Source of the DNA: Thermoplasmatales archaeon
GTDB taxonomy: Archaea; Thermoplasmatota; E2; DHVEG-1
Length of the DNA stretch: 62,811 nt
Assembly: GCA_020350365.1 (NCBI GenBank)
Contig: CP070712.1
Location: 1 to 62,811, forward strand
Reading direction: 5' to 3'
Each line of letters opens with the position of its first letter. The first letter of the stretch is position 1. Below the pieces are notes generated by a model. It was not told the DNA's origin. It saw only the letters and a list, made by a program, of their open reading frames with translations, and made no database searches. This document shows, piece by piece, positions 644 through 61,312 of the stretch. A program made the translations under genes and the position numbers.

Positions 644-1087
644 TTACTTAAACTCAAGATTAATAAAACTACTTTTATCAAATCCAATGGATTTGAAAAA
701 TGCAATTAAATCTCCACTATCCCACTTAACTGTTGTATATACCTCATTTATACCTTCATTTTTAAAATATTTAATCAAAGCTTCACCTAGAGTTTTACCA
801 ATTCCTTTTCCCATAAATTTTGGATCTACTTCTATCATCTCAATCCAACCTGATCGCTCTAATCCAAATCCCCATTCCTTTATACAGCCAATTATAAAAC
901 CTGCAACTATTTTATCTTTATCAGCTACAAGGCATGTTTTAGGATATTTTTTAATAAAAGATGAAAAAAGGTCTTCAATTGGATATTCCATCACCTGACT
1001 TAGACCTTCTCTTACAACCTGTCTATGAATATCAGCTGCTTGTTTAATATCGTCTTCCTTCATAGATCTTATAGTAATTCTTGTCAA
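644..1087 (-). CDS. GNAT family N-acetyltransferase
   Basis: 147 aa. Acetyl-CoA binding block VDPKFMGKGIGKTLGEAL. TTG start a few nt after GAGGTG. Confidence 0.8.
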   Translation of the reverse strand: MTRITIRSMKEDDIKQAADIHRQVVREGLSQVMEYPIEDLFSSFIKKYPKTCLVADKDKIVAGFIIGCIKEWGFGLERSGWIEMIEVDPKFMGKGIGKTLGEALIKYFKNEGINEVYTTVKWDSGDLIAFFKSIGFDKSSFINLEFK

Positions 1088-2868: not shown

Positions 2869-3612
2869 ATGCAATTCAAAGATAAATCTGCTATTATAAC
2901 AGGTGGAAGTATAGGAATAGGTGCAACTATTGCAGTAGAACTTGCACGTGAAGGTGCAAACGTAGCGATAAATTACCGCAAACATGATGCTGAAGCAAAA
3001 GAAGTTGCTAAAAAAATCGAGAAGTTAGGAAAAACATGTCTCATTGTAAAAGCAGATGTCAGCAATTATAATCATGCTGAAGGAATGTTTAAAAAAGTTA
3101 TTGAAGAATTTGGCAGATTAGACTTTCTTGTATGTAATGCAGGTATAAATAGAGACAGAGTTATTTGGAAGATGAGTGAAAATGATTGGGATAATGTTCT
3201 CAATGTGAATCTAAAGGGTTATTTCATTTATAATAAACTAGCTTCTGCACATTTTAAAGAGCAAAGATATGGCAAAATCGTTAACCTTACATCAATTAAT
3301 GGTCTAAGAGGAAAATTTGGACAGTGTAACTATTCAGCATCAAAAGGTGGAATTATCTCACTTACCAAAGCTCTTGCAAAAGAGGTTGGTAAATTCAATG
3401 TTAATGTAAACGCAGTTGCACCAGGAATGGTAATGACTGAAATGGCAAAAAACATACCGCCAGAATTCCTTCAAAAGGCAATAGATGAAACCGTTTTAGG
3501 TCGTATTGCTACAACAGAAGATATTGCAAATGTTGTAATTTTCTTATGCAGTGAAAAGGCTAAACATATAACAGGTGAGGTAATCAAGGTCGATGGAGGC
3601 CAATATATTTAA
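2869..3612 (+). CDS. Short-chain dehydrogenase/reductase, 3-oxoacyl/3-hydroxyacyl reductase type (FabG-like)
   Basis: TGGSIGIG, NAG and YSASKGG (YxxxK) motifs. GGAGGAG SD 5 nt upstream. Confidence 0.85.
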   Translation: MQFKDKSAIITGGSIGIGATIAVELAREGANVAINYRKHDAEAKEVAKKIEKLGKTCLIVKADVSNYNHAEGMFKKVIEEFGRLDFLVCNAGINRDRVIWKMSENDWDNVLNVNLKGYFIYNKLASAHFKEQRYGKIVNLTSINGLRGKFGQCNYSASKGGIISLTKALAKEVGKFNVNVNAVAPGMVMTEMAKNIPPEFLQKAIDETVLGRIATTEDIANVVIFLCSEKAKHITGEVIKVDGGQYI

Positions 3613-3627: not shown

Positions 3628-4779
3628 GTGAAGGTAGGAATTGTTGGTATAGGTCATGGAAAATTTGGAAATCGGAGTGATGCAACAGTTCAAGAGCTAG
3701 CTTTTGAACCATTTAAAGAAGCAATAGAAGATGCAAATAATCTAAGAAGAGAAGATATCGATTCATTAATTGTCGGATCGGTTCCTGAATATCATATGCA
3801 GCGCTCACTTCCTGGAGTTGTTGCAGAATATGTAGGTATTAATCCAAAATCTACCTGGCTTACTGAAGCCGCTTGTGGGTCTGGAAGTGCTGCTATTAGA
3901 ACAGCTTATATGTCAATAAAATCAGGAATGCATGATATCGTTGCAGTAATTGGAGTACAAAAAATGAGGGAACTATCTACAGAGGAAATTTTAGCATTAA
4001 TGGGAAGAGTTGGAGATGTTCAATGGGAATCAATTTTTGGAACTACATTTCCTGGTTATTACGCTCTTTACGCAAATAGACACATGCATGAATTTGGAAC
4101 TACAAAAGAACAAATGGCCCTAGTTGCTGTGAAGAATCATTATTATGGTTCAATGAATCCATATGCATTTTTCCAAAAGGAAGTTACAAAAGAAAGAGTT
4201 TTAGGTTCAGAGGATGTGGCATTTCCAGTAAATGTCTTTGATTGTTGTGCTAATGCAGATGGTGCAGCATGCGTAATTATGACAAATGAAAAACTTGCAA
4301 AGAAATTCAATGACACCCCAGTATGGTTTGAAGGTCTTGGTTCAGCTTCAGCACAAATGTCTCTACTTAGAAGACCTAATCTTGTTGAAATTCCAAGTGC
4401 AGTTGAAGCAGCAAAGCAAGCATATAAACAGGCAAATGTAGAACCATCAAATATTTCAGTTGCAGATGTTCATGATTGTTTTACAATAGCAGAAATCATG
4501 GCATATGAAAACCTTGGTTTCTGTGAGAAGGGGAAAGGTGGAAAGTTCATTGAGGAAAAACAATCCTACATTGGTGGTAAAAATCCTGTAAATGTTGATG
4601 GTGGCCTTAAGGCAAAGGGCCATCCAGTTGGTGCAACAGGTGTCTCAATGACAACTGAAATTGTAAAACAATTAAGAGGAGAAGCTGGAAAAAGACAGGT
4701 ATCAGGTGCAGACATTGGACTTACTCACAATGTTGGTGGAATTGGCCAATATACATTTGTTCATATACTTAGGAGGTGA
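3628..4779 (+). CDS. Thiolase (archaeal/SCP-x-type acetyl-CoA C-acyltransferase)
   Basis: 383 aa. EAACGSGSAAI active-site Cys region, HDCF and NVDGGLKAKGHPVGATG blocks. GTG start. Confidence 0.85.
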   Translation: MKVGIVGIGHGKFGNRSDATVQELAFEPFKEAIEDANNLRREDIDSLIVGSVPEYHMQRSLPGVVAEYVGINPKSTWLTEAACGSGSAAIRTAYMSIKSGMHDIVAVIGVQKMRELSTEEILALMGRVGDVQWESIFGTTFPGYYALYANRHMHEFGTTKEQMALVAVKNHYYGSMNPYAFFQKEVTKERVLGSEDVAFPVNVFDCCANADGAACVIMTNEKLAKKFNDTPVWFEGLGSASAQMSLLRRPNLVEIPSAVEAAKQAYKQANVEPSNISVADVHDCFTIAEIMAYENLGFCEKGKGGKFIEEKQSYIGGKNPVNVDGGLKAKGHPVGATGVSMTTEIVKQLRGEAGKRQVSGADIGLTHNVGGIGQYTFVHILRR

Positions 4780-4784
4780 AAATA

Positions 4785-5204
4785 ATGCCATTCAAATATT
4801 TTGGAAAAATCAATTTTACTCCTTATACAAAGGTGGATAAATTTTCAGAGTATCTTCATAAAGGAAAACTAATGGGCAGCAGATGTAAGAATTGTGGCGA
4901 GATTTATTTCCCACCGAGAGCTGACTGCTTAAAATGTATGGATGATAAATTTGAATGGGTTGAGTATTCAGGAAAAGGCATACTTCATAGTTTTACAACA
5001 ATACATGCAGCTCCAAAGGGATTTGAAGATATTGCACCCTATACCTTGGGCATTGTTGACCTTGAAGAAGGGGGACGACTTATATCTTGGATTGGGGATA
5101 TCCCAGAAAAAGAAGTAAAAATAGGAATGAATGTAAAGGTTGTTCCGCGCATCTTTGAAGAAATACCTGAAATTAAATTATATTACACAATTGAAAAACC
5201 TTAG
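4785..5204 (+). CDS. DUF35 Zn-ribbon/OB-fold protein (thiolase-associated)
   Basis: CKNCGEIYFPPRADCLKC zinc ribbon followed by an OB-fold-like region. ATG 8 nt after AGGAGG. Immediately follows the thiolase; an alternative GTG start at 4776 would overlap its stop. Confidence 0.8.
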   Translation: MPFKYFGKINFTPYTKVDKFSEYLHKGKLMGSRCKNCGEIYFPPRADCLKCMDDKFEWVEYSGKGILHSFTTIHAAPKGFEDIAPYTLGIVDLEEGGRLISWIGDIPEKEVKIGMNVKVVPRIFEEIPEIKLYYTIEKP

Positions 5205-5206
5205 AT

Positions 5207-6343
5207 TTATTCTTTCTTTATTGGTTTTGGAAGTACTGCTTCTTTTAGTTTATCATCAAATGGATGACCCTCAGCAATAAGTTGACGATACTTAACAAAA
5301 TCAATTACATCCTTACCAGTAATTTTTTTATTGTTAAATGCATGAAATCCAAGAAATGCCTCAGTTGCCATATTTGTAGCAAGCCAATGACGGTTAGCAA
5401 GTTTTGTCTGATCCCAAAAGAATTTCTTCTTCATTCTGATGCCATCAATTGATTTTATTAAACAACCTGGCATGAGATTTGTATAAGTCCATACTATATC
5501 ATCAACAGCTTTATCCAAGAGTTTAAAATCGGTTGGAGTTGATTTTATAATCTCACGGGCTTTTTTGAATTCTTCCCCCTTTAAAAATTCTCCATAAACA
5601 ATTTCTCCATCCTCTACATACTTATCTATTATTACTGTTGGATTTCTAATGAATTTATTATCTTGTTTTAAAACAGGGACAACTTTGCTAATGAGACTTA
5701 ATCTCTTTGCTTTATATGCAGACCATAATTCACAAGAAATACAATTCCACATTGCATCCTCAATACAAAGCATCCAAGGCAGAAAATCAGTGGATCCACC
5801 ATCAGGTGCAGAACCATGACGTGGTCCAGCTTGACCATATATTGCTAAGTCTGACGATACTGCAATATCACAGGCCATACCTATTTCTTGGCCACCTGCA
5901 ACACGCATTCCATTGACTCTACAAATAGTAGGTTTTTTACAATTTAAAATTGAATCTACCATTGCATTAAATAAATCCATGTAAAGTCCATATTCATTTG
6001 GTTTACCACTATAATATTCTGCATATTCCTTAGTATTTCCCCCAGTACAAAATGCTTTATCTCCAACTGCAGTAAAAATTGCTGCAACAACACTTCTATC
6101 CATTGATGCTTTATGAAATCCTGCGATAACTCCCTTGACCATATCTGTAGTATAAGAATTATATTGTGCAGGATTATTAAGTGTAATCCATGCAGAATTC
6201 AATCCTTTTACTTTTTTTCCCTCATTGTCGATAACAGGTTTCAATTCATAAATTATACCTGGTGAATCACGACTAAAATATTCTTTTCCCCACAAATCAT
6301 GATTCTTTATTTCATTATCTTTTGGTAACCAATCTAATGACAT
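5207..6343 (-). CDS. bamA: 6-oxocyclohex-1-ene-1-carbonyl-CoA hydrolase (ring-cleaving crotonase, BamA/Oah)
   Basis: 378 aa, long for a crotonase. Contains NNPAQYNSYTTDMVKG, AFCTGGNTKEYAEYY, RVNGMRVAGGQEIGMACD and YGQAGPRHGSAPDGGSTDFLP. Confidence 0.8.
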   Translation of the reverse strand: MSLDWLPKDNEIKNHDLWGKEYFSRDSPGIIYELKPVIDNEGKKVKGLNSAWITLNNPAQYNSYTTDMVKGVIAGFHKASMDRSVVAAIFTAVGDKAFCTGGNTKEYAEYYSGKPNEYGLYMDLFNAMVDSILNCKKPTICRVNGMRVAGGQEIGMACDIAVSSDLAIYGQAGPRHGSAPDGGSTDFLPWMLCIEDAMWNCISCELWSAYKAKRLSLISKVVPVLKQDNKFIRNPTVIIDKYVEDGEIVYGEFLKGEEFKKAREIIKSTPTDFKLLDKAVDDIVWTYTNLMPGCLIKSIDGIRMKKKFFWDQTKLANRHWLATNMATEAFLGFHAFNNKKITGKDVIDFVKYRQLIAEGHPFDDKLKEAVLPKPIKKE

Positions 6344-6477: not shown

Positions 6478-7650
6478 ATGAAAGCTGCCGTTTTATATGG
6501 AAAGGAAGAGTTGAATATCGTTCCTGATTTTGAAGATCCTGTTATCAAAGAATCAGATGTTCTTGTAAAGTCAAAATACACTGGGTTATGCAGTACAGAT
6601 CGCACTCTGTATCGTGGTTTTGTTCCATTCAAACCACCACTAATTATTGGTCATGAAATCGCTGGTGTTGTCGAGGAACTTGGTAAATCTGCAAAAGGAC
6701 TTGATGTTGGTGATCATGTAATTATTCCACCAGTATTCCCTGGTTGTGAAGATGAAAATTGTCCAGCATGCAAAGAGGGACTTACTAACAGATGTAAAAA
6801 TTCTGTATTTATTGGTCATGGAGTTCATGGTGGAGATGCAGAATTAATTGCTGTTCCTTCAAAATATACATTCAAAATTAAAGACAGTGTCCCATTGGAG
6901 GAAGCATGTATTATTCCAGATGCAGTCTCAACTCCATTTCATGCATTAAAAAGTAGATCTGTTCCACCTCATATTATTAAAAACACTCTAAACTCAAGCA
7001 AGCTATTTGATCAAAAGACTCATTGGTTAAAAGGAAAAAATGTAGTGGTTTTTGGAGTTGGAGGAGTTGGTGGACCAACAGTAAACCTTGCTGCAAAATA
7101 TTTCCAAGCAAAAAATGTCCTTGCAGTTGACATTTTTGATAACAAGCTTGATTTTGCAAAAAAACTAGGTGCTACCCAAACTGTTAATTCAAAATCCTAT
7201 TTTGAAGAAAATAACATTAAATTTAATGAACTAACTGGACGAGATAAAGCAAAAGCAATATCTGGTCTGGCAAGACATATTAGTTCTCATTTTGCAGAAG
7301 ATAAATTCCAGGTCGATTGTGTACTTGATTGTTCTGGTGTTTCTGATACTTTTCCGATGGCAGTTGAAACTGTTAGCAAAAATCGAACTGTTATTCAAGT
7401 TGGTTGGCCACCAAAACCTGTTCAAGAATTTCTGAACCAGAAAATCATGGATAAATATCTATCAATAAATGGAACCTGGGCCTGTCCGATGAACGAGTTG
7501 GATGAAAATGTAAAAGCTGTAGAAGATGGAATTGTGGATTTAGATTTACTAGTGACTAACAAGGATTATAAGTTGGATAGTTTGGAAAATGCGATACATG
7601 ATCTTGAAGCAGGGAAAATTCTTGGGAGAGCAACAATTTGTATTGAATAA
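6478..7650 (+). CDS. Zn-dependent alcohol dehydrogenase family. Candidate 6-hydroxycyclohex-1-ene-1-carbonyl-CoA dehydrogenase (Had-like).
   Basis: GHEIAGVV catalytic Zn site, structural Zn cysteines CEDENCPACKEGLTNRC, GVGGVGG Rossmann motif. Divergent from bamA. Confidence 0.6.
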   Translation: MKAAVLYGKEELNIVPDFEDPVIKESDVLVKSKYTGLCSTDRTLYRGFVPFKPPLIIGHEIAGVVEELGKSAKGLDVGDHVIIPPVFPGCEDENCPACKEGLTNRCKNSVFIGHGVHGGDAELIAVPSKYTFKIKDSVPLEEACIIPDAVSTPFHALKSRSVPPHIIKNTLNSSKLFDQKTHWLKGKNVVVFGVGGVGGPTVNLAAKYFQAKNVLAVDIFDNKLDFAKKLGATQTVNSKSYFEENNIKFNELTGRDKAKAISGLARHISSHFAEDKFQVDCVLDCSGVSDTFPMAVETVSKNRTVIQVGWPPKPVQEFLNQKIMDKYLSINGTWACPMNELDENVKAVEDGIVDLDLLVTNKDYKLDSLENAIHDLEAGKILGRATICIE

Positions 7651-7666: not shown

Positions 7667-8434
7667 ATGACATATAAAACAATAATTGTTGATGAAAAAG
7701 ATATGATTGGTAGAATTACATTCAATGTTCCGCCATTAAATATTCTAAATATCGAAATGATGGAGGAGATCAACCAGGCATTAAAGGAATTTCTAAAGAA
7801 GAATTTAAAAGTTTTAATTTTAGATGCGAAAGGTAAGGCATTCTCAGCAGGTGTTGATGTATCTGATCATACTAAAGAAAAAGTTGCTAAAATGATACAA
7901 GTCTTTCATGAAATTTTTACCAATCTTTACAAAATCAATGCACCAACCGTTGCACTTGTAAATGGGGCTGCTCTTGGTGGTGGTTGTGAGGTTGCAACAT
8001 TTTGTGACATTGTAATTGCTTCAGAAAAATCAAAGTTTGGACAACCTGAAATTAAAGTGGGAGTATTTCCGCCAATAGCTGCAGCAATATTTCCCAAGTT
8101 AATGTGGAGTAAAAAAGCACTTGAGCTTATTATTACAGGTGATGTAATAAGTGCAAATGAAGCAAAGGACCTTGGTCTTGTTAATCATGTTCTCCCTGTT
8201 GATAATTTTGAAATAGAATCTGAAAAACTAATTAATGAAAAACTTGCAAGCAACAGTGCAATTGTTCTTCAGCTTACAAAAAGGGCGTTTATAGAAGGAG
8301 CTAAAAATAATTATTCTGAATCTATCAAGATAATTGAAGATATTTACCTCAACAATCTTATGAAAACTAACGATGCAAATGAGGGACTTACTGCTTTTCT
8401 AGAAAAAAGACAACCCGTTTGGAAAAACAAATAA
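7667..8434 (+). CDS. Enoyl-CoA hydratase/crotonase. Candidate cyclohexa-1,5-diene-1-carbonyl-CoA hydratase (Dch-like).
   Basis: 255 aa from the ATG at 7667 (GAGGTG SD upstream). KAFSAGVDV and GAALGGGCE oxyanion-hole blocks. The track start at 7589 overlaps the upstream ADH. Confidence 0.6.
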   Translation: MTYKTIIVDEKDMIGRITFNVPPLNILNIEMMEEINQALKEFLKKNLKVLILDAKGKAFSAGVDVSDHTKEKVAKMIQVFHEIFTNLYKINAPTVALVNGAALGGGCEVATFCDIVIASEKSKFGQPEIKVGVFPPIAAAIFPKLMWSKKALELIITGDVISANEAKDLGLVNHVLPVDNFEIESEKLINEKLASNSAIVLQLTKRAFIEGAKNNYSESIKIIEDIYLNNLMKTNDANEGLTAFLEKRQPVWKNK

Positions 8435-11157: not shown

Positions 11158-13197
11158 CTATTCTCCCTTAAATGAAGGTCTTTGTCTTTTTATAATAGAA
11201 TTTAATCCTTCAATAGCATCCTTTGTTGAGAATATCTCTGAAAGATGGTTAAGCTCTATTTCCAGACCATCTTTAAGTTCAAGAGAGCTACCCTCATCTA
11301 TTATTTTGTTGGCAAGTTTTATAGCAATGGGTGCTTTGTAGGAAATTGTTTTTGAAATCTTTTGACCAATTTCGTTTAATTCACCCTTTCCAGATAGAAC
11401 GTATTCAATGTTTTCATCGGAGAAATATTTCTTTACCTTTTGAAAAAATTCAGGTAGTTCTATTTCTTTTTTTATTGATTTCTTAATCATTTTTCCTTTA
11501 GTAATAATTTCAATTATCTTTCTATCTATTTCATCCTGTGTAACAACATGTTCAATTAAACCTATCGAAGCAGCAGATTTTGCATCTAGGATTTTTCCAG
11601 TAAAAATTAGGTATTTTGCAAGTTCCTTTCCGATATATCTAGTAGTTCTTTGAGTTCCTCCCAAACCTGGATAAATACCAATCCCTGTTTCTGGAAAACC
11701 AATGCTTCCCTTATCAGTAGCAATTATTATATCAGCTGAAAGTGCAATCTCTGCACCTCCTCCCAATGCCAGACCATCAAGCTTTGCAATTACTGGTTTA
11801 TTGGATGCATCTATCTTATTTAGAACAGAATGTCCATATCTTGTAAAATTATAGATATCATCAATTTTGTTTTGCTCAATCTTTTTTATAAAGTATTGAA
11901 TATCTGCTCCTGCAACAAATGCCTTACCTGCACCCTCAAGGACAATTCCTTTTACCTTAGGATTGCTATTTGCCTCAGTAAATTTTTCATCTAGTTGAGA
12001 AATAACTTCTTCGTTAATCGAATTCATCGCCTCAGGTCTATTTATAAGAATTCTTGCAATATTTTCAACTATTTTAAGATCTACATAGCTGAAGCTCCAA
12101 GGTTTTTTATTTTCGTATTGAGCCTTTAAAATTGAAGGTGTCTTCATCATCGGATATTTATCAACGAGTTTTGTAACAATTTCATAAGAGCGTTTAATTC
12201 CATATCTATTCATTAATTCAAATGGACCACTTCGCCATCTTAGACCTATTTTTGCTCCCCTATCAATATCTTCTATTTTTGAAATACTTTCTTCTGCAAT
12301 ATCACAAGCAACTAAGAAAACCGTACCAAGTAAACGCTCTTCTATTTCAGCAGCCTTTGAGGGTTCAATCTCTCCACTCATATCCCATTGCTCTTTTTTC
12401 TCAAATTGTTGTCTAAGACAATTACTTGGCTTGTAAAAATCACCTAATTTTTCTCCAAGACTTATAGTTGAGTGATATGCAATTGGAACACCTGTTAAGT
12501 TCATTAACTCAAAAGGTCCAATTGGTATTTTAAAAACCTTTTTTGCAATTTCATCTATTGTAGGAATATTTGCAACTTCCTCTTCCAACAGTCGAGTAGA
12601 TTCGTTTAACCATGGTACAAAAAACCTATTAACAACAAATCCTGGAGCATCTAATGCATTAATACCTGTTTTACCTATCATTTTTGAAAAAACTTCAGCT
12701 AAAGAAATTGTATTCTTACTTGTTTTTTCACCAGGAATTATTTCTAATAAACGATTCTTTGCAGGATGATAAAAAAAATGAAGTCCAATAAACTTTTCCT
12801 GTCTTTTTACTACCTTTGCCAGTTCTGCTATTGAAAATGAAGAAGTATTAGAGGCAAAAATAGTTGAATCCTTACAAACACTATCTAAATATTTGAAAAG
12901 ATCTTTTTTTACATCTAAATCTTCAAATACTGCCTCAATAATGATATCAGCATCTTTTAACTCATCTTTATTTGTCGTTCCAGTTACAAGATTTAAAATA
13001 TCTTTTGTTTGTTCTTCTGTAAGTATTTTCCGTTCAATTGCTTCGGATAGAGTTTTTTTAATGCTGTTTAATCCATTTTGTACAAATTTTTCATCAACAT
13101 CTACCATTACTACATGAATTCCTTCTTGAGCTATCTTTTGGGCAATTCCACTACCCATATTACCTGCACCAATAACTCCTATTTTTTGGATTTTCAT
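11158..13197 (-). CDS. Bifunctional 3-hydroxyacyl-CoA dehydrogenase (N-terminal) / enoyl-CoA hydratase (C-terminal)
   Basis: IGVIGAGNMGSGIA at the N-terminus. C-terminal crotonase blocks KAFVAGADI and GLALGGGAEIAL. ATG at 13197 follows AGGTG; the track start at 13230 overlaps the thiolase stop. Confidence 0.85.
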   Translation of the reverse strand: MKIQKIGVIGAGNMGSGIAQKIAQEGIHVVMVDVDEKFVQNGLNSIKKTLSEAIERKILTEEQTKDILNLVTGTTNKDELKDADIIIEAVFEDLDVKKDLFKYLDSVCKDSTIFASNTSSFSIAELAKVVKRQEKFIGLHFFYHPAKNRLLEIIPGEKTSKNTISLAEVFSKMIGKTGINALDAPGFVVNRFFVPWLNESTRLLEEEVANIPTIDEIAKKVFKIPIGPFELMNLTGVPIAYHSTISLGEKLGDFYKPSNCLRQQFEKKEQWDMSGEIEPSKAAEIEERLLGTVFLVACDIAEESISKIEDIDRGAKIGLRWRSGPFELMNRYGIKRSYEIVTKLVDKYPMMKTPSILKAQYENKKPWSFSYVDLKIVENIARILINRPEAMNSINEEVISQLDEKFTEANSNPKVKGIVLEGAGKAFVAGADIQYFIKKIEQNKIDDIYNFTRYGHSVLNKIDASNKPVIAKLDGLALGGGAEIALSADIIIATDKGSIGFPETGIGIYPGLGGTQRTTRYIGKELAKYLIFTGKILDAKSAASIGLIEHVVTQDEIDRKIIEIITKGKMIKKSIKKEIELPEFFQKVKKYFSDENIEYVLSGKGELNEIGQKISKTISYKAPIAIKLANKIIDEGSSLELKDGLEIELNHLSEIFSTKDAIEGLNSIIKRQRPSFKGE

Positions 13198-13226
13198 AAT
13201 TTTACACCTTTTTTTAAAAAAAAGTA

Positions 13227-14435
13227 TCAATCAATACTAACCTTTAAAATTATAGCAGCACCTGTATCTCCAGCTGCACAACCATCAAAAAGTCCATAGC
13301 CCCCTCCTTTTAATACCAACTCTTCGATAAGCTCAATAATCAATCTAGCTCCAGTAGGAGCCTGTGGATGACCATAAATAAGAGATGAACCATAATTGTT
13401 CATTTCATTCCATTCTATGTCCATTTCCCTACAAAAATAGATATCGTTAACTGCAAATGGATTATGTGTTTTTATAGCATTTATATCTTCAATTGATAAA
13501 TTTGCCTGTTTAAGTGCCATTTTGGCTGCAGGGATAATTGCCATTGCCATATAGCCCTTTTTCGCCCGACCTTCACCATAGGACAATACTTGGATTTCAA
13601 TTATTTTATCCTTGCTTAACTGTTTTGCCTTATCACGAGTAGTAACAATAATACCACAATTACCATCTGCTGGATGAGTTTGTGTGCCAAATGTAACCGT
13701 TCCATTTGGTATTACTGGCCTTAGTTTTTCAAGTCCTTCAGGTGTGGTTGGATAAATTCCCTCATCTCCCTCTACTGTTGCTAGAACCTTTCGACCTTTT
13801 CTATCTTTTACCTCAATAGGACTAATCATATATTTTTTTTGAAAAGCCCTGTTGTTTGTTATTGAATCCTGATACTGTTTGTAACGTAAAAATGTAATTT
13901 TATCTTGCTCTTCTTTAGGTATATCTGCTTCTTTTGCTACATTTTCAGCAGTCTCTACCATTGCATTTTTAGCAAAGGGATCATAACCGAAGTTATCCCA
14001 AACCCAACTCTCTCTATCTTGGGTCGCACCAGGAGCTTGTGGATTTGGATAAACAAGAAGAGGACCATTAGAACACCTGTCTGCGTATATTACAAGAATA
14101 TTTTTACGCAATCCAGTCTCAATTCCAATTGTGGCTAATTCAACCCCTCTTGCACCAGTTGCACAAGCTTGACCAATCATTGGACCGGTGATATGTTCAG
14201 CTCCAATCATACCTGCTAACCATGGAGTTCCATAAAATTGAGAAGGTTGAGGTATTGTAATACCAAAAATCAATTCGTCAAACTCTTTTGGATTTATTTT
14301 TTTTTCCTGCAGAAATCTTGCACCAATATCAGCTGCAAACTTGATTGAATGAAGATTTTGAAAACTTTTTTGCCAAGCACAAAAAGGTGTGCTCCAATAT
14401 CCACCATATGGTATGTATGTATTTTTAAAAACCAT
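13227..14435 (-). CDS. Acetyl-CoA acetyltransferase (thiolase)
   Basis: 402 aa. GQACATGARG active-site Cys, NPFAVND, and C-terminal GCAAGDTGAA. Confidence 0.85.
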   Translation of the reverse strand: MVFKNTYIPYGGYWSTPFCAWQKSFQNLHSIKFAADIGARFLQEKKINPKEFDELIFGITIPQPSQFYGTPWLAGMIGAEHITGPMIGQACATGARGVELATIGIETGLRKNILVIYADRCSNGPLLVYPNPQAPGATQDRESWVWDNFGYDPFAKNAMVETAENVAKEADIPKEEQDKITFLRYKQYQDSITNNRAFQKKYMISPIEVKDRKGRKVLATVEGDEGIYPTTPEGLEKLRPVIPNGTVTFGTQTHPADGNCGIIVTTRDKAKQLSKDKIIEIQVLSYGEGRAKKGYMAMAIIPAAKMALKQANLSIEDINAIKTHNPFAVNDIYFCREMDIEWNEMNNYGSSLIYGHPQAPTGARLIIELIEELVLKGGGYGLFDGCAAGDTGAAIILKVSID

Positions 14436-15705: not shown

Positions 15706-16908
15706 TCAATTCTTACAAAGATTCTTTTTAAGTTCTTCATTCAAAGCTGGTATAATTTCATTCAAATCTCCAATAATCCCACAATCGGCTATATCAAAAA
15801 TTGGAGCCTCACGGTCAGTATTAATGGCAATTATAGTATCAGAGCTCTTCATCCCTACCTGATGCTGAATTTTTCCAGAGATACCACATGCAATATATAT
15901 CTTTGGTGATACAGTCTTTCCACTTTGACCTACTTGGTTTGTACGTGGTCTCCAACCAGCATCAACAGCTGCTCTTGATGCCCCGACCACACCATTAATG
16001 GTTTTTGCAAGATCTTCCAAAATTTTAAAATTCTCAGCAGATCCCATACCTCTACCACCAGATATGATAATATCTGCTTCATCTAGACTCTTAACACCAG
16101 CCTTAGTTGTTTTAACAACTTCTTTTATAATAATCTTCAAAGCTTTAGGATCTAATTCTATAGGGATAGAAATAATTTCAGCTTTTCTAGAATGATCTGG
16201 TTTTTGTATCTTCATAACATTTGGCCGGGTTGTAGCCATTTGAGGACGAACATTTGGAGAAATAATATCTGCCATAATATTACCTCCAAAAGCAGGTCTA
16301 GTTTGTAATAGTAGGCCATCTTTAATAGATAAACCAGTGCAATCAGCTGTAAGACCAACTTCTAAACTCGCAGCAACCCGTGGAGCTAAATCTCTACCCA
16401 AATGAGTTGCTGGGAAAAGTACAATGTTAGGTTTATATTTTAGTATTAAACCGGTTAAAATCCCTGTATAGTTACTAGTGTTATATTCACTAAGATTTTT
16501 ATTTTCTACAATATAAGCTATATCAACTCCATAAGCTGCGATTTCATCGCATAGATGCTTTGCTTTCTCTCCAAGTATTACTGCTCCTACTTTCTCACCT
16601 AAGGTATCTGCAATTTCTCTAGCTTTACTAGCAAGTTCTAAGCTTACCTTTTTTAGTTCATTTTCTCGAATTTCTACAAAAATCCATACATTCTTATATT
16701 CAGATAAATTTTTATCACTAAGTTTTGGCCTCTCAATAACAATTGCATCAAATTTACAAACTTCCAAACAAGATCCGCAAAGTGTACAATTGGCTTCGAT
16801 TTCAGCTTTCTTATTCAAGATTTTAACTGCAGCAAACGGGCATACCTTTACACAAAGTCCACACCCTGTACATTTATCTAAAATAATTTCTATTCCCAAA
16901 ATCTTCAC
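15706..16908 (-). CDS. etfA: Electron transfer flavoprotein alpha subunit with an N-terminal 2x[4Fe-4S] ferredoxin domain
   Basis: CTGCGLCVKVCP and CTLCGSCLEVC motifs, followed by the EtfA FAD-binding region (SGGRGMGS, VGASRAAVDAGW, QVGQSGKTVSPK). Confidence 0.85.
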   Translation of the reverse strand: MKILGIEIILDKCTGCGLCVKVCPFAAVKILNKKAEIEANCTLCGSCLEVCKFDAIVIERPKLSDKNLSEYKNVWIFVEIRENELKKVSLELASKAREIADTLGEKVGAVILGEKAKHLCDEIAAYGVDIAYIVENKNLSEYNTSNYTGILTGLILKYKPNIVLFPATHLGRDLAPRVAASLEVGLTADCTGLSIKDGLLLQTRPAFGGNIMADIISPNVRPQMATTRPNVMKIQKPDHSRKAEIISIPIELDPKALKIIIKEVVKTTKAGVKSLDEADIIISGGRGMGSAENFKILEDLAKTINGVVGASRAAVDAGWRPRTNQVGQSGKTVSPKIYIACGISGKIQHQVGMKSSDTIIAINTDREAPIFDIADCGIIGDLNEIIPALNEELKKNLCKN

Positions 16909-17705
16909 CTTTTAGTTAGAGCTTCATTTTTGCATAGAATCTTGCTTAATTTTTTTGCAGCTTCTTTTGGATTATCTTCAATAAGCTCACATTCGCCACG
17001 TTTTGGTGGAGTATATGTTTTAATTACCTGTGTAAAAGAGCCATCTAAACCAAATCTAGATTTATCTCCCCCTAGGGTTTCTACATCCCATATATTAAAA
17101 GGTTTTCTTTTTGCCTTTAATATGCTACTCATAGGTGGATGTTCAGGTTGAAATGATGTTGGTGGGAGAAGGGTCAATAAGAGGGGCAGTTTTGCCTCAA
17201 GAATCTGATAGCCATCCTCTGTCTGTTTATTAATAGTAAGTTTGTTTTTATTATCAATCTCAATTTTTTCAACATAGGTTACCTGAGGAATGCCAAGTTG
17301 TTGTGCTAGTTCAGGTCCTACCTGTGCAGTATCACCATCTATAGCCTGCTGTCCACAAAAAACTATATCAAAAAACCCAATTTTTTTAATCGCTAGTGAA
17401 AGAGTATATGCGGTTGCCCAGGTATCAGATCCTGCAAATGCTTTGTCAGATATTAAAATTGCCTCATCTGCCCCAAGGGCCAAGCATCTCATCAATGCAC
17501 TTCGTGCTTGTGGTGGACCCATTGTGAGAACTGAGACACTGCAATCACCAATTTGATCCCTTATTCTTACACATTCTTCAATTGCGAATTGATCATAAGG
17601 ATTCAAAATACTTGGTACTCCATCTCTAATTAATGTGTGGGTTTTGGGATCAACTTTGACTTCTGTAGTATCAGGAACTTGCTTTATACAAGCAATCAGT
17701 TTCAT
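16905..17705 (-). CDS. etfB: Electron transfer flavoprotein beta subunit
   Basis: MKLIACIKQVPDT, CGQQAIDGDTAQVGP. Overlaps etfA by 4 nt. Confidence 0.85.
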   Translation of the reverse strand: MKLIACIKQVPDTTEVKVDPKTHTLIRDGVPSILNPYDQFAIEECVRIRDQIGDCSVSVLTMGPPQARSALMRCLALGADEAILISDKAFAGSDTWATAYTLSLAIKKIGFFDIVFCGQQAIDGDTAQVGPELAQQLGIPQVTYVEKIEIDNKNKLTINKQTEDGYQILEAKLPLLLTLLPPTSFQPEHPPMSSILKAKRKPFNIWDVETLGGDKSRFGLDGSFTQVIKTYTPPKRGECELIEDNPKEAAKKLSKILCKNEALTKR

Positions 17706-17723
17706 TTCTATTCCTACAAGTAA

Positions 17724-18932
17724 TTATCGATACGCCAAAAACTCTTTACCAAGTAATTCTCTAGCAATAATTAACTTCATTATCTCAGTAGAACCCTCAG
17801 CAAGGGTAAATGAACGTACAGCACGCCAGGCTTTCTGATCTTCACATTCCTTCGTATATCCAAAAGCTCCCTGCCATTGCATAACATCGTTTATTGCTTC
17901 AGATGCCCAAATTGAAGCAACAGATTTTGCCATAGCAATTGCCATGCTAACATCAAATCTAGAAGCTTTTCCTTGTATTTCTTGGTCATATGTCCAAAGA
18001 GCTTTGTAACCTAGTTCACGAAGTGCTTGTATACGGACGTGGTTTTCAGCTAGTTTGAATTGAATACCTTCATATTTACCAATATGCCTGCCAAAAGCCT
18101 TACGCTCTTTAATATACGCAATACCATTCTCAAGAGCTTTTGATGCAGCACCTGCACATACAAGGGCTATTAGTCCACGTGCAAGCTCATATCCCTCATG
18201 AACACAGTAAAATCCCTTATTTTCCTCACCAAGAAGATAATGCTTTGGAATCTCAACATTGTTAATGTCAAAACCTCCACATGAGATTGCCTCTCTACCA
18301 ATATCTTCAACATAGGTAGGTGTAATACCTTTTGTATCTTTCAAAGGAAGGTAAAACAAACACATACCTCTTGTTCCTTTATCAGGAGTCATCTTAGCAA
18401 GAGTAACATGACCTCCGCCATATTCCATTGCTTCAGCAACACCGCTAATGTACATTTTCTCTCCATTAATTATGTATTTATCTCCCTTTTTGCTAATCTT
18501 AGTTTTCATAGAACCTAGGTCTGATCCGATATCTGATTCAGTAGTAGCAATACCAATAATCTGTTCACCATTTATTGCTTTAGGAAGAATCTCTTTTTTT
18601 GCCTCTTCAGTACCATATTTATCTATCACATGACCCCATGAGGTTCCCACAAGAAATAATACAGGTATTGAACAGCTGGGATCTGCCCTGGCTAATTCTT
18701 CAGCTGCAATTCCAGCAGTTATAACATCTGTTCCTAATCCGCCATATTCGGGATCTATAATCAAACCAAGAAGTTCAAATTTTGCTAATGCTTTTATTAT
18801 TTCCTTTGGCATTCTTCTTACTTCAGTTAATTTTTCTGTTTTTGGAACAATTTCACTTGCGCAAAATTCTTTCATACTTTCTCTAAAAAGTTCTTGTTCC
18901 TCCGTAAATCTATAATCTACCATCTTAGCCAC
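17724..18932 (-). CDS. Acyl-CoA dehydrogenase
   Basis: 402 aa. ACAD N, middle and C domains; C-terminal TLAEGSTEIMK. Confidence 0.8.
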   Translation of the reverse strand: MAKMVDYRFTEEQELFRESMKEFCASEIVPKTEKLTEVRRMPKEIIKALAKFELLGLIIDPEYGGLGTDVITAGIAAEELARADPSCSIPVLFLVGTSWGHVIDKYGTEEAKKEILPKAINGEQIIGIATTESDIGSDLGSMKTKISKKGDKYIINGEKMYISGVAEAMEYGGGHVTLAKMTPDKGTRGMCLFYLPLKDTKGITPTYVEDIGREAISCGGFDINNVEIPKHYLLGEENKGFYCVHEGYELARGLIALVCAGAASKALENGIAYIKERKAFGRHIGKYEGIQFKLAENHVRIQALRELGYKALWTYDQEIQGKASRFDVSMAIAMAKSVASIWASEAINDVMQWQGAFGYTKECEDQKAWRAVRSFTLAEGSTEIMKLIIARELLGKEFLAYR

Positions 18933-19070
18933 CCACCATATCTAAATAAGGTTATTGGGAATGATTGGTACGGTATAATAATTTTATTATAATCTAAGCT
19001 ATAAACTAGTTTTTATCAATTAAATTAATAACAACGTAAAATAAAGTGTAATAAATCAAAAAGCATTTTT

Positions 19071-20210
19071 TTATAAACCTAATCTTTTTGATATTACAAT
19101 CCTCTGAACTTCTGAAGTACCTTCACCAATCTGACATAGTTTAATATCTCTGAAATATCTTTCAACAGGATATTCACGAAGATAGCCCAATCCACCAAAA
19201 ATTTGTATTGCTTTATTTGTTGCTCTCATTGCAATTTCAGATGCAAATAACTTAGCCATTGCAGCTTCTTTAGAATAAGGTAATTTTTTATCTTCTAAAA
19301 AAGCAGCTCTATAAACAAGTAATCTTGCAGCATCCAAATCAGTTGCCATATCTGCAATCATCCATCGAATAGCTTGAAATTTACCAATCGGTCTTCCAAA
19401 CTGTTGCCGTTGATTTGCATATTCAAGACTGTCTTCAAGTGCTCCCCGGGCAATTCCAACAGACATTGCACCAACTGCTGTACGACCTCGATCAAGAGTA
19501 TCCATAACCCCATAGAAACCTTCATTTTCTTCACCAAGAAGATTTTCCTTTGGTACTCGACAATCTTCAAAAATAAGTTCAGCGGTTCTACTTCCACGGA
19601 GTCCAAGTTTATCTTCTAATTGACCAACTTTAAAACCCTTTGTATCCTTTTCAACAAGTATAGCAGATATTCCCTTCGCACCTTTATCCTTATCAGTCTT
19701 TGCCATCACAATGGTAACACCTGCAATATCACCACTTGTTATGAATTGTTTTGTACCATTTATAACCCATTCATCCTTTTCTAGAACTGCAGTAGTTTGA
19801 AGCCCAGCAACATCTGATCCTGCATTTGGTTCAGTAATTGCTAATGCTGCAAAATTTTCACCATTTGTATAATTTGGAAGATATTTCTCTCGTTGTTCTT
19901 CAGATCCATGTTCATATATATACCCACAACCAAGAGTATTATGTGCTTCAACAGTAAGACCTGTGGATCCACAATATCTAGAAATCTCCTCAAGCGCAAT
20001 CATATAACTTACTTTATCAATTCCTGCTCCACCATACTTTTGTGGAACAGTCATTCCCATTAAACTCATCTTTCCCATTTTTTTATATAGGTCAAATGGA
20101 AAATATTCTTCTTTATCAATTTTTGGAGCTATTGGTTTTAATTCTTTTACACAAAATTCTCTAATAACTTTCTGAAATTGTTTCTGTTGTTCTGAGAGAT
20201 TAAAATCCAA
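19071..20210 (-). CDS. Acyl-CoA dehydrogenase (butyryl-CoA dehydrogenase-like)
   Basis: 379 aa. ITEPNAGSD, QIFGGLGY, QIGEGTSEVQR. Confidence 0.85.
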   Translation of the reverse strand: MDFNLSEQQKQFQKVIREFCVKELKPIAPKIDKEEYFPFDLYKKMGKMSLMGMTVPQKYGGAGIDKVSYMIALEEISRYCGSTGLTVEAHNTLGCGYIYEHGSEEQREKYLPNYTNGENFAALAITEPNAGSDVAGLQTTAVLEKDEWVINGTKQFITSGDIAGVTIVMAKTDKDKGAKGISAILVEKDTKGFKVGQLEDKLGLRGSRTAELIFEDCRVPKENLLGEENEGFYGVMDTLDRGRTAVGAMSVGIARGALEDSLEYANQRQQFGRPIGKFQAIRWMIADMATDLDAARLLVYRAAFLEDKKLPYSKEAAMAKLFASEIAMRATNKAIQIFGGLGYLREYPVERYFRDIKLCQIGEGTSEVQRIVISKRLGL

Positions 20211-54043: not shown

Positions 54044-55816
54044 ATGAGGATAGCTGTACTTATTAAGGATAGATGTAAATCTAAAAATTGCTCTAGAGAA
54101 TGCATAAAATTTTGTCCAAGGGTTAGAGCTGGTGATGAAACCATTTTTATGGGTGAAAACGGAAAACCAATAATTTCAGAGCAGCTATGTGTTGGATGTG
54201 GAATCTGTATACATAAATGTCCTTTTGATGCAATAAAGATAATTGGTCTTGCTGAAGAGCTTGAAACAGATCTTGTTCATCAATTTGGAAAAAATGGTTT
54301 TAGACTATTTAAACTTCCAGTTCCAAAAATGGGTACCTGCATTGGAATTCTTGGACCAAATGGTATAGGTAAAACAACAGCAATTAGGCTTCTTTCTGGA
54401 CAGATTTTACCAAATCTTGGTGATTACGATGAAACGGTTACATGGGAAGATATTGTATATTACTATTCTGGAACAGAATTACATGAACATTTTAGAAAAC
54501 TGGCAAATAATGAAATATCAAGTGTAGTAAAACCACAATATGTAGATAGATTACCAAAAATTATGAAGGGTAAAATTGGAGATGTACTAAAAAAAATAGA
54601 TAACTCAGAAAATTTTGAAAATATTGTTGATAAACTTGGAATAAAAAATATTCTAAACAAATATATTGAAAAAAGAGAAATCTCTGGTGGTGAGCTTCAA
54701 CTTGTTGCAGTTGCAGCAGCCCTTTTAAAGGATGTAGATTTATATTTTTTTGATGAACCTTCTTCTTATCTTGATATCCATCAAAGACTAAAGGTGGCCA
54801 GAATAATTAAGGAATTATCTGAAAAGAAAAAAGTAATTGTTATAGAACATGATTTAGCAGTTCTTGATTTTCTTTGTGATAACGTTCACCTTGTATATGG
54901 AGACGAAGGAGCATATGGAGTAATAACAAATGCTCGTGGTGTTAGACATGCAATAAATACCTATCTATCAGGATATCTTAAAGAAGAAAACATTAGATTT
55001 GGGGAAAAGATAGAGTTTTTTGAACATCCCCCAAAGCAAAGACAGCAAATGAACATTCTAATTTCTTATGCAGATCTGACCAAAGATTTTGAGGAATTCT
55101 CCCTTGAAATCGAAAAAGGTATTATTAGAGGAGGAGAAATAATAGGAATTGTTGGACCAAATGCTATAGGTAAAACAACTTTTGTTAAAATTCTTGCAGG
55201 GACAATAAAACCAACTGCTGGAAAAGTAGAATATGATATAAAGGTCAGTTATAAACCTCAATACATAACACCAGATTACAAAGGAAGTGTAAGAGAATTT
55301 TTAGAGTCAAACTCCCAACAAATATTTACATCCTCATTTTATAAAGCAGAAATATTTGACGCATTTAACCTAAAATATCTTCTGGATAAACAAATCGAAA
55401 CGCTATCTGGTGGAGAATTACAAAGAGTTGCAACAGCAAACTGTCTTGTTCAAGAAGCTGATATATATCTTATAGATGAGCCCTCCGCCTATCTTGATTC
55501 TGAACAAAGAATGATTACTTCAAGAACTGTAAGAAGGGTTATTGAAAAGGTAGGAAAATCAGCATTAGTAGTTGATCATGATGTTTATTTCATTGATATG
55601 ATAAGTGACGCGTTAATTGTCTTTGAAGGTGAACCGGGAAAAAATGGAAAAGGATGTGGACCTTATAGTTTGCATGAGGGCATGAACCGTTTTCTAAAAG
55701 ATGTAGACATAACATTCAGGAGGGATGAGGAGACCCATAGACCACGGGTGAACAAACCAGATTCATTTATGGATAGAAAACAAAGAAAAGAAGGAGAATA
55801 CTATTATAGTATTTGA
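54044..55816 (+). CDS. abce1: ABCE1 (RNase L inhibitor homolog; ribosome recycling ATPase)
   Basis: N-terminal Fe-S domain (CKSKNC..CIKFCP, CVGCGICIHKCP) plus two ABC cassettes (GPNGIGKTT x2, LSGGELQ x2). Confidence 0.95.
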   Translation: MRIAVLIKDRCKSKNCSRECIKFCPRVRAGDETIFMGENGKPIISEQLCVGCGICIHKCPFDAIKIIGLAEELETDLVHQFGKNGFRLFKLPVPKMGTCIGILGPNGIGKTTAIRLLSGQILPNLGDYDETVTWEDIVYYYSGTELHEHFRKLANNEISSVVKPQYVDRLPKIMKGKIGDVLKKIDNSENFENIVDKLGIKNILNKYIEKREISGGELQLVAVAAALLKDVDLYFFDEPSSYLDIHQRLKVARIIKELSEKKKVIVIEHDLAVLDFLCDNVHLVYGDEGAYGVITNARGVRHAINTYLSGYLKEENIRFGEKIEFFEHPPKQRQQMNILISYADLTKDFEEFSLEIEKGIIRGGEIIGIVGPNAIGKTTFVKILAGTIKPTAGKVEYDIKVSYKPQYITPDYKGSVREFLESNSQQIFTSSFYKAEIFDAFNLKYLLDKQIETLSGGELQRVATANCLVQEADIYLIDEPSAYLDSEQRMITSRTVRRVIEKVGKSALVVDHDVYFIDMISDALIVFEGEPGKNGKGCGPYSLHEGMNRFLKDVDITFRRDEETHRPRVNKPDSFMDRKQRKEGEYYYSI

Positions 55817-59650: not shown

Positions 59651-61312
59651 ATGGATAAGATTGTTGAATGTGTCCCAAACTTCAGCGAAGGAAAGGATAA
59701 ATCGATAATTAATGCAATATCAGCAGCTATTGAGTCAGTTGATGGAGTAAAATTGCTTAATGTAGATCCTGGAGAGGATTTCAATAGAACTGTCTATACA
59801 TTTGTTGGTGAACCTAAATCTGTTCTAGAGGGAGCAGTTAAGGCAGCAAAGATAGGTATTGCTCTCATTGATATGACAAAACATAAAGGAGAGCATGCAA
59901 GAATGGGTGCTCTTGATGTATGCCCTTTTATTCCGATTAAAGGTGTCGTGGTCAATGATTGTATTGATATTTCAAAAAAATTTGGTGAACGTTTAGCAAA
60001 TGAAATTGGGATTCCAGTATTTCTTTATGCAAAATCTGCTGTAAAACCGGAGAGAGTAAAACTACCAGATATACGAAAAGGAGAATATGAAGCTCTCGAA
60101 GAGAAATTCAAAGATCCATCATTCAATCCAGATTATGGTAAACCATTATTTATTCCTAAAAGTGGAGCAACTGCTACAGGTTGCAGGGATATCCTTCTTG
60201 CTTATAATATAAATTTGGATACCAATGATAAATCAATTGCATCAAAAATTGCTGGTAAGATTAGAACAAGCGGAGTTATTAAAAAAGATAAAGATGGAAA
60301 TAAAATTTTAGATTCTAATGGAAAAGCAGTAAGAATCCCTGGAAGATTTAAAGGTGTTCAAGCTGGGGGAATGATGTATGATGAAAATATTGCACAGGTT
60401 TCTATGAATCTTCTTAATTATCGTGATGTTAATTTACACGATGTTTTTGAGGCCGTTCAAGAAGAAGCTGAAAAATTAGGCTCAAAAGCAACTGGAAGTG
60501 AAATAGTAGGACTAGTACCAAAGGATTCTCTTATCTTAGCAGGAAAATTTTATTCTAAAAAAGATGGTCTAAATGTTACTGATGAGGAGGAGCTAGTAAG
60601 TATTTCGATTGATAAATTAGGGCTCTCTGAACTTTATCCATTTAAGGTTGAAGAAAAAGTAATTGAGTATATGGTAGAAGAAACAGGTCCTCTTGCATCA
60701 ATGAAAATTAATAATTTTCTTTCAGAACTTGCTTCTTCATCTCCTGCTCCAGGTGGTGGCAGTGTTGCTGCACTTGCTGGAGGTCTTGGAGCAGCATTAT
60801 CATCAATGGTTTGTAATCTTACGATAGGCAAAGAAAAATATTCTGAAGTTCAAAACATTATTAAAGATACTTTAAAGAAAAGTGAAAAAATAAGAAAGGA
60901 TCTAACTCGTTTGATTGATGAAGATACCGAAGCATTTAATGATGTTATGAAAGCATTTAAAATGCCAAAGGAAACAGAAGAACAAAAAGAAAAAAGAAGT
61001 AAGGCAATACAAGAAGGCTATAAAACTGCAGCAAAGGTACCTCTTGAAACAGCAAAAACCTGTGAAAGAATTCTTGATATAGCTCGAATTGTTGCTGAAA
61101 AAGGAAACCAAAACTCAATAACAGACTCAGCAGTATCTGCTCTAATGGCCCAAGTTGGAGTTGAATCAGCAATTTTAAATGTAACTATAAATCTTGGCTC
61201 TATAAAGGATGAAAAATTTGTAAATAGCATATCAATTGAAATTAAAAAACTAAAAAATAATGCTAATAAAAAAGCTAAAGAGATTATAAATATCGTTATT
61301 AGTAAGATTTAA
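59651..61312 (+). CDS. ftcD: Bifunctional glutamate formimidoyltransferase / formimidoyl-THF cyclodeaminase (FTCD)
   Basis: IVECVPNFSEGKD N-terminus (FT domain). C-terminal cyclodeaminase block SSSPAPGGGSVAALAGGLGAALSSMV. 553 aa. Confidence 0.9.
   Translation: MDKIVECVPNFSEGKDKSIINAISAAIESVDGVKLLNVDPGEDFNRTVYTFVGEPKSVLEGAVKAAKIGIALIDMTKHKGEHARMGALDVCPFIPIKGVVVNDCIDISKKFGERLANEIGIPVFLYAKSAVKPERVKLPDIRKGEYEALEEKFKDPSFNPDYGKPLFIPKSGATATGCRDILLAYNINLDTNDKSIASKIAGKIRTSGVIKKDKDGNKILDSNGKAVRIPGRFKGVQAGGMMYDENIAQVSMNLLNYRDVNLHDVFEAVQEEAEKLGSKATGSEIVGLVPKDSLILAGKFYSKKDGLNVTDEEELVSISIDKLGLSELYPFKVEEKVIEYMVEETGPLASMKINNFLSELASSSPAPGGGSVAALAGGLGAALSSMVCNLTIGKEKYSEVQNIIKDTLKKSEKIRKDLTRLIDEDTEAFNDVMKAFKMPKETEEQKEKRSKAIQEGYKTAAKVPLETAKTCERILDIARIVAEKGNQNSITDSAVSALMAQVGVESAILNVTINLGSIKDEKFVNSISIEIKKLKNNANKKAKEIINIVISKI

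Follow-up and report, generated by a model that had tools for sequence, protein, structure and literature searches.

The benzoyl-CoA pathway has been characterised biochemically in the archaeon Ferroglobus placidus. Its ring-opening enzyme, 6-oxocyclohex-1-ene-1-carbonyl-CoA hydrolase (Oah, also BamA), was reportedly characterised biochemically from Thauera aromatica (Oah) and from Geobacter metallireducens and Syntrophus aciditrophicus (BamA), by Laempe in 1999 and Kuntze in 2008. In uncultured archaea, class I benzoyl-CoA reductase genes (bcr) together with oah, dch and had were described from Thermoplasmata and Bathyarchaeota metagenome-assembled genomes (MAGs) (Dong et al. 2019, PMC6472368), bcrABCD from 'Ca. 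Yaplasmales' (Zheng et al. 2022, PMC9239135) and, in an estuarine survey, bcr from Bathyarchaeia and 'other Thermoplasmatota', with MBG-D excluded (PMC8329499). Here we analyse an oah gene on contig CP070712.1 of a Thermoplasmatales archaeon (GCA_020350365.1). The whole contig of 62,811 nucleotides is from now on referred to as the window. It is the longest of 216 contigs, joined by 100-N spacers, in a 1.82-Mb MAG that is 64% complete. The gene very probably encodes a working Oah/BamA, specifically one of the BzdY type found in Azoarcus and Aromatoleum, as part of a benzoyl-CoA-type pathway of an uncultured Thermoplasmata archaeon.

The 378-amino-acid product belongs to the same NCBIfam equivalog and the same length class as Thauera Oah and Geobacter and Syntrophus BamA and carries the same two primer peptides, with sequence identities taken from proxies. 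Identity to BzdY of Aromatoleum toluvorans, toluolicum and tolulyticum and of Azoarcus sp. Aa7, which falls in the same major clade, is 68% over 374-375 amino acids. Oah of Thauera aminoaromatica is 53% identical over 347 amino acids, the Thauera-type proteins forming the other major Oah clade. For Geotalea toluenoxydans BamA, a draft, frameshifted sequence, the value is about 50% (54% and 41% over two pieces), and Syntrophales/Syntrophaceae MAG proteins reach 69-71%. All of these are same-genus or same-family proxies and not the Oah proteins of T. aromatica K172, G. metallireducens, S. aciditrophicus or F. placidus themselves; the cultured ones (T. aminoaromatica, Aromatoleum spp., Azoarcus sp. 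Aa7 and G. toluenoxydans) were found by a DNA pattern scan with two primers, a locus search at the protein level having yielded MAGs only. The alignment to Thauera, Geobacter, Syntrophus and Ferroglobus Oah that a preliminary description of the window had named as a check was thus made by proxy for the first three.

Family membership is clear from the Oah equivalog model TIGR03200 (dearomat_oah), which the protein matches with 573.6 bits (cut-off 464.45), residues 12-371 covering model positions 1-360 of 360. Positive controls scored 646 bits (Azoarcus sp. Aa7 BzdY) and 724 bits (T. aminoaromatica Oah), and archaeal homologues 531 bits (Bathyarchaeia) and 570 bits (Hodarchaeota). Together with the proxy identities and the tree described below, this end-to-end match supports the BamA/Oah assignment of the preliminary description and bears out conservation across the full length. 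BadI (2-ketocyclohexanecarboxyl-CoA hydrolase) and MenB share the crotonase fold, the GQxGPxxGS loop and retro-Claisen/Dieckmann-type chemistry with Oah; however, both measure only about 260-285 amino acids and lack the Oah-specific N-terminal part, two inserts and tail. Their models align to the core alone (residues ~50-235) and score far below their cut-offs, specifically 103.9 against 467.6 bits for BadI (TIGR03210, residues 50-231) and 81.9 against 342.7 bits (TIGR01929) and 93.6 against 380 bits (NF005637) for MenB. A better fit to BadI-type or other crotonases was therefore not seen. With BadI and MenB scores 4-6 times below that of Oah, identity as BadI, MenB or a generic enoyl-CoA hydratase was rejected as far as sequence data go. 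Pfam detected only the generic ECH_1 domain, and no solved Oah structure was found in the PDB, where the top sequence match is E. coli MenB (85.6 bits).

For a maximum-likelihood tree, 88 Oah-family rows were combined with E. coli MenB, Aromatoleum BzdW, the BzdW-like crotonase of the window and two other crotonases of the same genome. Geotalea bamA was left out because a frameshift interrupts it in that draft assembly. In this tree, a check that the preliminary description had named, the window protein lies inside the Oah clade, which is split from MenB, Dch (BzdW) and the other crotonases with 99% support. Internally, one clade is Thauera-type and the other, with 100% support, is of the Azoarcus/obligate-anaerobe type; the window protein belongs to a Thermoplasmatota clade (99%) nested within the latter. 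The tree is the product of a quick search with long outgroup branches and no BadI sequence, and the separation it suggests nevertheless agrees with the model scores.

E153, which occupies the general acid/base position of crotonases, and the loop G170-Q-A-G-x-x-H-G-S178 (GQAGPxHGS) are both invariant in an alignment of 65 sequences. The loop resembles those of MenB and BadI and is unlike the second-glutamate loop of simple hydratases. At 378 amino acids the protein falls within the 360-380-residue Oah class and consists of a crotonase core of about 260 residues with family-specific additions. The size argument of the preliminary description holds in that the protein is about 120 residues longer than crotonases of 255-285 amino acids, but the extra residues do not form the single C-terminal extension that it had proposed; the addition is composite. 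In an L-INS-i alignment against MenB, BzdW and further crotonases, it is spread over an N-terminal part of about 35 residues including an insert at 36-44, inserts at 225-239 and 292-323 and a tail at 355-376. The AlphaFold2 model, computed from a 65-row alignment, shows a crotonase fold (mean predicted local distance difference test score 89.3, predicted template-modelling score 0.88) with short strands after residue 225 and a single long helix at 292-324, consistent with the aligned inserts. Foldseek returned only crotonases of about 235-285 amino acids, with TM-scores of ~0.55 normalised on the query and at most 0.89 on the targets.

The two peptides that the preliminary description had reported, QYNSYTT and GGQEIGM, were found at residues 60-66 and 150-156, the second of them containing E153. 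Each occurs once in a six-frame translation of the whole assembly, both times within oah. Exact QYNSYTT is present in 65 of 80 homologues and exact GGQEIGM in 78, these homologues having been collected by protein similarity alone, and most residues of both motifs are invariant in the 65-sequence alignment. That the two blocks are the targets of the bamA primers had been stated correctly, because the published primers SP9 (5'-CAGTACAAYTCCTACACVACBG) and ASP1 (5'-CMATGCCGATYTCCTGRC) (PMC3579730, PMC3794298) translate to Q-Y-N-S-Y-T-T and (G)-Q-E-I-G-M and their sites in oah lie 292 bp apart, which fits the published amplicon of ~300 bp (PMC3579730, PMC3794298). At the DNA level, 6 of the 22 bases of SP9 and 3 of the 18 bases of ASP1 are mismatched, and polymerase chain reaction (PCR) with this pair would therefore probably miss the low-GC oah of the window; standard bamA primers probably fail on other such archaeal genes as well. 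Even though the peptides encoded are the same, PCR surveys likely underestimate the number of low-GC archaeal bamA genes. The Oah gene copy of a 'Methanobacteriota' MAG matches the primers exactly.

According to the preliminary description, the aromatic-pathway reading depended mostly on oah alone. This is not so, and the worry about a single gene is removed because the bzdNOPQ genes, encoding a Bzd-type class I benzoyl-CoA reductase, adjoin the oah contig. The N-terminal half of bzdN runs off the start of the window. Screening the MAG with PF06050 and PF01869 led to contig 107 (G000 1524072-1528532, 4,461 bp), which carries the C-terminal half of bzdN, bzdO, bzdP, bzdQ, a ferredoxin gene and a truncated 2Fe-2S-like protein, the genes being named by NCBIfam. 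The end of contig 107 overlaps the start of the window over 123 nucleotides with 4 mismatches, and no other contig end in the MAG matches the window start. The slightly mismatched overlap suggests a strain mixture, and the contig break is probably due to strain variation. Joined across both contigs, BzdN scores 469.2 bits against a cut-off of 453.8 (485.4 bits for the intact homologue of locus L007), and BzdO and BzdQ are likewise above their cut-offs. The gene in the BzdP position was matched only generically because no BzdP model came up. Two HGD-D-type subunits (N and O) and two BcrAD/BadFG ATPase-type subunits (P and Q) are thus present.

Physical linkage of these genes is also found elsewhere. 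Contigs of the L007/L008 type, 70-76 kb long and from independent Thermoplasmata/Thermoplasmatota assemblies, contain bzdN as one intact gene, and in L007 and L008 the genes for Oah, the DUF35 protein, thiolase, short-chain dehydrogenase/reductase (SDR), GNAT acetyltransferase, BzdN, BzdO, BzdP, BzdQ and ferredoxin form an unbroken run. Across 81 related genomes, Oah and BzdO exceed their cut-offs in the identical 10 genomes, a co-occurrence with a chance probability of ~5e-13, uncorrected for phylogeny. In 8 of the 10 carriers both genes share a contig and lie 4-9 kb apart. Both are present in 4 of 4 genomes of the genus and in 7 of the 40 genera that were sampled from the family, and none of the 81 related genomes outside the family has them.

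Geobacter and Syntrophus BamA is paired with a class II reductase (BamB-I), and none was found in the window MAG. The best AOR-family protein is 29% identical to a BamB-like AOR-family open reading frame beside Geotalea bamA, itself a putative label only, and its NCBIfam hits are generic for AOR; a class II reductase was thus rejected. One AOR-family protein of the MAG (G000 1351118-1353199) is unusually long at ~690 amino acids, is cut by a contig gap, has weak NCBIfam matches and is not BamB-like. A second HGD-D-type protein, HadB/BcrB-like and below cut-offs, is encoded beside a fatty-acyl-CoA-type ligase on a small contig (G000 1621166-1623924), and a third, stand-alone activase-type ATPase lies at G000 1136851-1137642; the two may belong to a separate 2-hydroxyacyl-CoA-dehydratase-like system. 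The bzdO gene of one related Thermoplasmata genome contains an in-frame TAA (G034:C55:40019-41341), and the frame change in Geotalea toluenoxydans bamA lies at L151 5287-5293. Both may be assembly errors or pseudogenes.

The nearest relatives of the window protein are encoded in Thermoplasmatales/Thermoplasmata MAGs (85-97% identity), some of them already annotated publicly as 6-oxocyclohex-1-ene-1-carbonyl-CoA hydratase, among which the publicly named Oah of Thermoplasmatales archaeon SG8-52-4 is 86% identical. The next nearest homologues are bacterial (65-77%). Archaeal Oah proteins are polyphyletic in the tree, Bathyarchaeia grouping with Desulfobacterales and a Hodarchaeota row with Bacillota (loci L073, L080, L017 and L185), which suggests several independent transfers from bacteria. 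Polyphyly and the patchy presence within the family therefore point to acquisition of the oah cluster from bacteria by horizontal transfer. The same bacterial affinity and polyphyly might be read as a sign of bacterial contamination in the bin, or of some other crotonase subfamily that resembles Oah by chance, a reading that we consider hardly credible. The gene lies on a 62.8-kb contig that also encodes the archaeal/eukaryotic marker ABCE1/RLI (54044-55816) and is archaeal for that reason, its G+C content of 31.6% matches the 31.7% of the assembly, syntenic copies are found in several independent Thermoplasmata assemblies, and the BadI and MenB scores lie far beneath that of Oah. As far as sequence data go, bacterial contamination was rejected on the archaeal contig, the matching G+C content and the syntenic relatives.

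Compared with the bzd cluster of Azoarcus and Aromatoleum, the locus shares the Bzd-type NOPQ reductase, a BzdW-like hydratase (46% identity to Aromatoleum BzdW) and a BzdZ-like SDR (38-40% identity to the SDR adjoining bzdY in Aromatoleum). It differs in that its host is an archaeon with 32% G+C, in gene order and strands, with oah divergent from the genes for an alcohol dehydrogenase (ADH) and a crotonase, in the addition of a thiolase/DUF35 pair and a GNAT protein and in having no bzdA-type ligase nearby. Further, a distant Zn-dependent ADH (Zn-ADH) takes the place of a BzdX (Had) orthologue. The locus resembles F. placidus and the Thermoplasmata and Bathyarchaeota MAGs in combining an archaeal host, an ATP-dependent class I reductase and Oah; in contrast to them, the window lineage looks mesophilic, has low G+C content and is uncultured.

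The Zn-ADH is the sole match to BzdX in the genome, at 27% identity, and scores 118.4 bits on the Had model TIGR03201 (cut-off 338.65), which places it outside that family, whereas a true BzdX scores 621.6 bits. Zn-ligand and GxGxxG motifs are visible in its sequence, and it adjoins oah in loci L006-L009 too (77-86% identity). Its position suggests that it probably performs the Had step and may stand in, as a non-orthologous enzyme, for one member of the pathway. The neighbouring crotonase, with a likely start at 7667 rather than at the listed 7589, is the top match of BzdW in the MAG. It scores 163.2 bits on the Dch model TIGR03189 (cut-off 292.5), and because a true Aromatoleum BzdW also fails with 172.2 bits, this model does not cover Bzd-type hydratases and is uninformative for Dch.

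The remaining neighbours could plausibly supply a lower pathway, although none of these candidates (SDR, thiolases, DUF35, the dehydrogenase/hydratase fusion, Etf and acyl-CoA dehydrogenases) exceeds a pathway-specific cut-off. An SDR adjoins oah also in the bacterial loci L010 and L012, and the thiolase/DUF35 pair does so in L006-L009 and L012 and lies near oah in L073. The thiolase matches NF004720 with 500 bits and the small OB-fold protein PF01796 and PF12172. The 3-hydroxyacyl-CoA dehydrogenase/enoyl-CoA hydratase fusion and the second thiolase, with NCBIfam matches of the FadB/FadJ and thiolase types, are found beside the cluster in L008 and L009. For EtfA, EtfB and the two acyl-CoA dehydrogenases, NCBIfam models of AcrABC, Etf, glutaryl-CoA dehydrogenase and cyclohexanecarbonyl-CoA dehydrogenase were all matched below cut-off.

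Taken as a horizontally acquired, Azoarcus/Aromatoleum-like 'bzd' gene set, the cluster would work as follows. BzdNOPQ with ferredoxin and ATP would form the dienoyl-CoA by reduction of benzoyl-CoA or of a closely related ring-substituted compound, and the product would be hydrated by the BzdW-like crotonase. The 6-hydroxyl group would then be oxidised by a dehydrogenase, probably the adjacent divergent Zn-ADH, and Oah would add water to 6-oxocyclohex-1-ene-1-carbonyl-CoA and cleave a ring C-C bond to yield 3-hydroxypimeloyl-CoA. From there, the C7 chain could be degraded to acetyl-CoA by the SDR and the thiolase/DUF35 pair, together with the products of nearby beta-oxidation and Etf genes. 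The data show that Oah, BzdN, BzdO and BzdQ belong to their families, that the genes are physically linked and that they co-occur across genomes; what we infer in this scheme are its substrates, which enzyme carries out the Had step, in which direction the flux runs and where benzoyl-CoA comes from.

Several points weigh against a working benzoyl-CoA pathway. On energetic grounds, a strict fermenter would not be expected to use an ATP-dependent reductase, an oddity discussed by Dong et al. 2019 (PMC6472368). No benzoate-CoA ligase (TIGR02262) was found in the MAG, where the top score is 222 bits against a cut-off of 375 and the best candidates are an acetyl-CoA synthetase and generic fatty-acyl ligases; this is a weak negative because the MAG is 64% complete. 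In this same incomplete MAG, it is only the overlap with its 4 mismatches that connects the bzdOPQ contig to the window. The Zn-ADH next to oah is far below the Had model (118 against 338.65 bits) and distant from BzdX. The function of this Oah clade is a prediction, and whether the substrate is benzoyl-CoA or an analogue carrying a methyl or hydroxy group is beyond the resolution of the model scores.

It is conceivable, though unlikely, that a true Oah-family enzyme here serves a cluster acting on 3-/4-methylbenzoyl-CoA or hydroxybenzoyl-CoA instead of benzoyl-CoA. Azoarcus and Magnetospirillum possess paralogous bzd-like clusters that act on methylbenzoates, the enzyme in the Had position is not orthologous to known Had, a benzoate-CoA ligase orthologue was not found in the MAG, and Oah, at 573.6 bits, stays below the 646-724 bits reached by the cultured controls. 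However, BzdN, BzdO and BzdQ pass equivalog cut-offs that were built on benzoyl-CoA reductases, and Oah is 68% identical to BzdY in a comparison set that lies outside the methylbenzoate clusters. Oah could also function without dearomatisation, in cyclohexane- or cyclohexene-carboxylate breakdown or fermentatively in reverse, as in Syntrophus, with the acyl-CoA dehydrogenases and Etf as suppliers. Two acyl-CoA dehydrogenases that partly match cyclohexane(-ene)carbonyl-CoA dehydrogenase models and an Etf with a ferredoxin domain are indeed encoded 10-14 kb away, but among 81 genomes Oah and BzdO occur strictly together, in one identical set of 10, and oah adjoins bzdNOPQ, and we regard this role as very improbable. 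The dehydrogenases were rejected as enzymes of a cyclohexanecarboxylate route, their matches being far under cut-off (344 against 650 and 233 against 575 bits) and acryloyl/butyryl-CoA-type models scoring higher.

For the favoured reading, an Oah within a Bzd-type pathway, the gene is a correctly annotated known enzyme in a lineage from which it was already reported; the finding is sound but ordinary because the Bcr-Dch-Had-Oah pathway had been reported in Thermoplasmata MAGs. Mildly new are the explicit join of the two contigs, the mismatch to the primers and a Had candidate that is not orthologous to known Had. The marker gene behind the window's reading as an anaerobic aromatic degrader is reliable, and a complete Bzd-type ATP-dependent reductase adjoins it. 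Since uncultured Thermoplasmata are widespread in anoxic sediments, this supports earlier metagenomic claims of their role in aromatic breakdown. For the Had step this lineage offers a candidate only, the Zn-ADH, and for CoA activation no ligase was found in the MAG. A broader proposal, quite possible although we hesitate to favour it, is that one family of abundant sediment Thermoplasmata took up a whole bacterial bzd-type island and exchanged the canonical Had for a Zn-dependent dehydrogenase that is unrelated to it and specific to the lineage, which would make the pathway an archaeal variant with one non-orthologous step, and that low-GC archaeal bamA is systematically missed by PCR surveys.

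Table 1 Coordinates of oah, its signature codons and neighbouring genes in the window and on contig 107.
Feature	Position	Strand	Basis or remark
bzdN, N-terminal half (Bzd-type class I benzoyl-CoA reductase subunit), off contig start	1..705	-	TIGR03190, model 3-201 of 377, 234.5 bits
GNAT acetyltransferase	644..1087	-	PF00583; just upstream of bzdN, same position in L007-L009
SDR, BzdZ-like, candidate 3-hydroxypimeloyl-CoA dehydrogenase	2869..3612	+	NCBIfam FabG/acetoacetyl-CoA-reductase-type matches
Thiolase-domain protein (3628-4779) and DUF35/ChsH2 OB-fold protein (4776-5204), candidate 3-oxopimeloyl-CoA thiolase	3628..5204	+	
oah/bamA (bzdY-like), 6-oxocyclohex-1-ene-1-carbonyl-CoA hydrolase	5207..6343	-	ATG start; TIGR03200, tree, identity, model
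GGQEIGM codons	5876..5896	-	ASP1 primer target
QYNSYTT codons	6146..6166	-	SP9 primer target
Zn-dependent medium-chain dehydrogenase/reductase-type ADH, divergent from oah, candidate Had	6478..7650	+	Position; not an orthologue of known Had
Crotonase, 255 amino acids, BzdW-like candidate Dch	7667..8434	+	
Fusion of 3-hydroxyacyl-CoA dehydrogenase and enoyl-CoA hydratase (11158-13230), with a thiolase (13227-14435); candidates for lower beta-oxidation	11158..14435	-	
EtfA (ferredoxin domain at its N-terminus), EtfB, two acyl-CoA dehydrogenases; candidate enzymes for oxidising glutaryl-CoA or acyl-CoA	15706..20210	-	
BzdN, C-terminal half	contig 107		Model 174-377
BzdO	contig 107		608.8 bits, cut-off 448.6
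Second activase-type ATPase (BzdP position)	contig 107		Generic activase TIGR00241 only, 209.6 bits
BzdQ	contig 107		438 bits, cut-off 380.2
4Fe-4S ferredoxin	contig 107		Present

The sequence GGGAGG stands a few bases 5' of the oah ATG, and the divergent intergenic region upstream of the gene measures 134 bp, is A+T-rich and contains TATA-like words. Between the SDR and GNAT/bzdN genes, the window encodes a MiaB/RimO-type radical SAM methylthiotransferase (1301-2536) that has no counterpart at this place in L007 and L008. No tRNA or Rfam matches were detected in the window. At its right end, genes for a formiminotransferase-cyclodeaminase and a formate-tetrahydrofolate ligase are adjacent (59651-62809), a pairing that suggests a histidine or C1-folate link.

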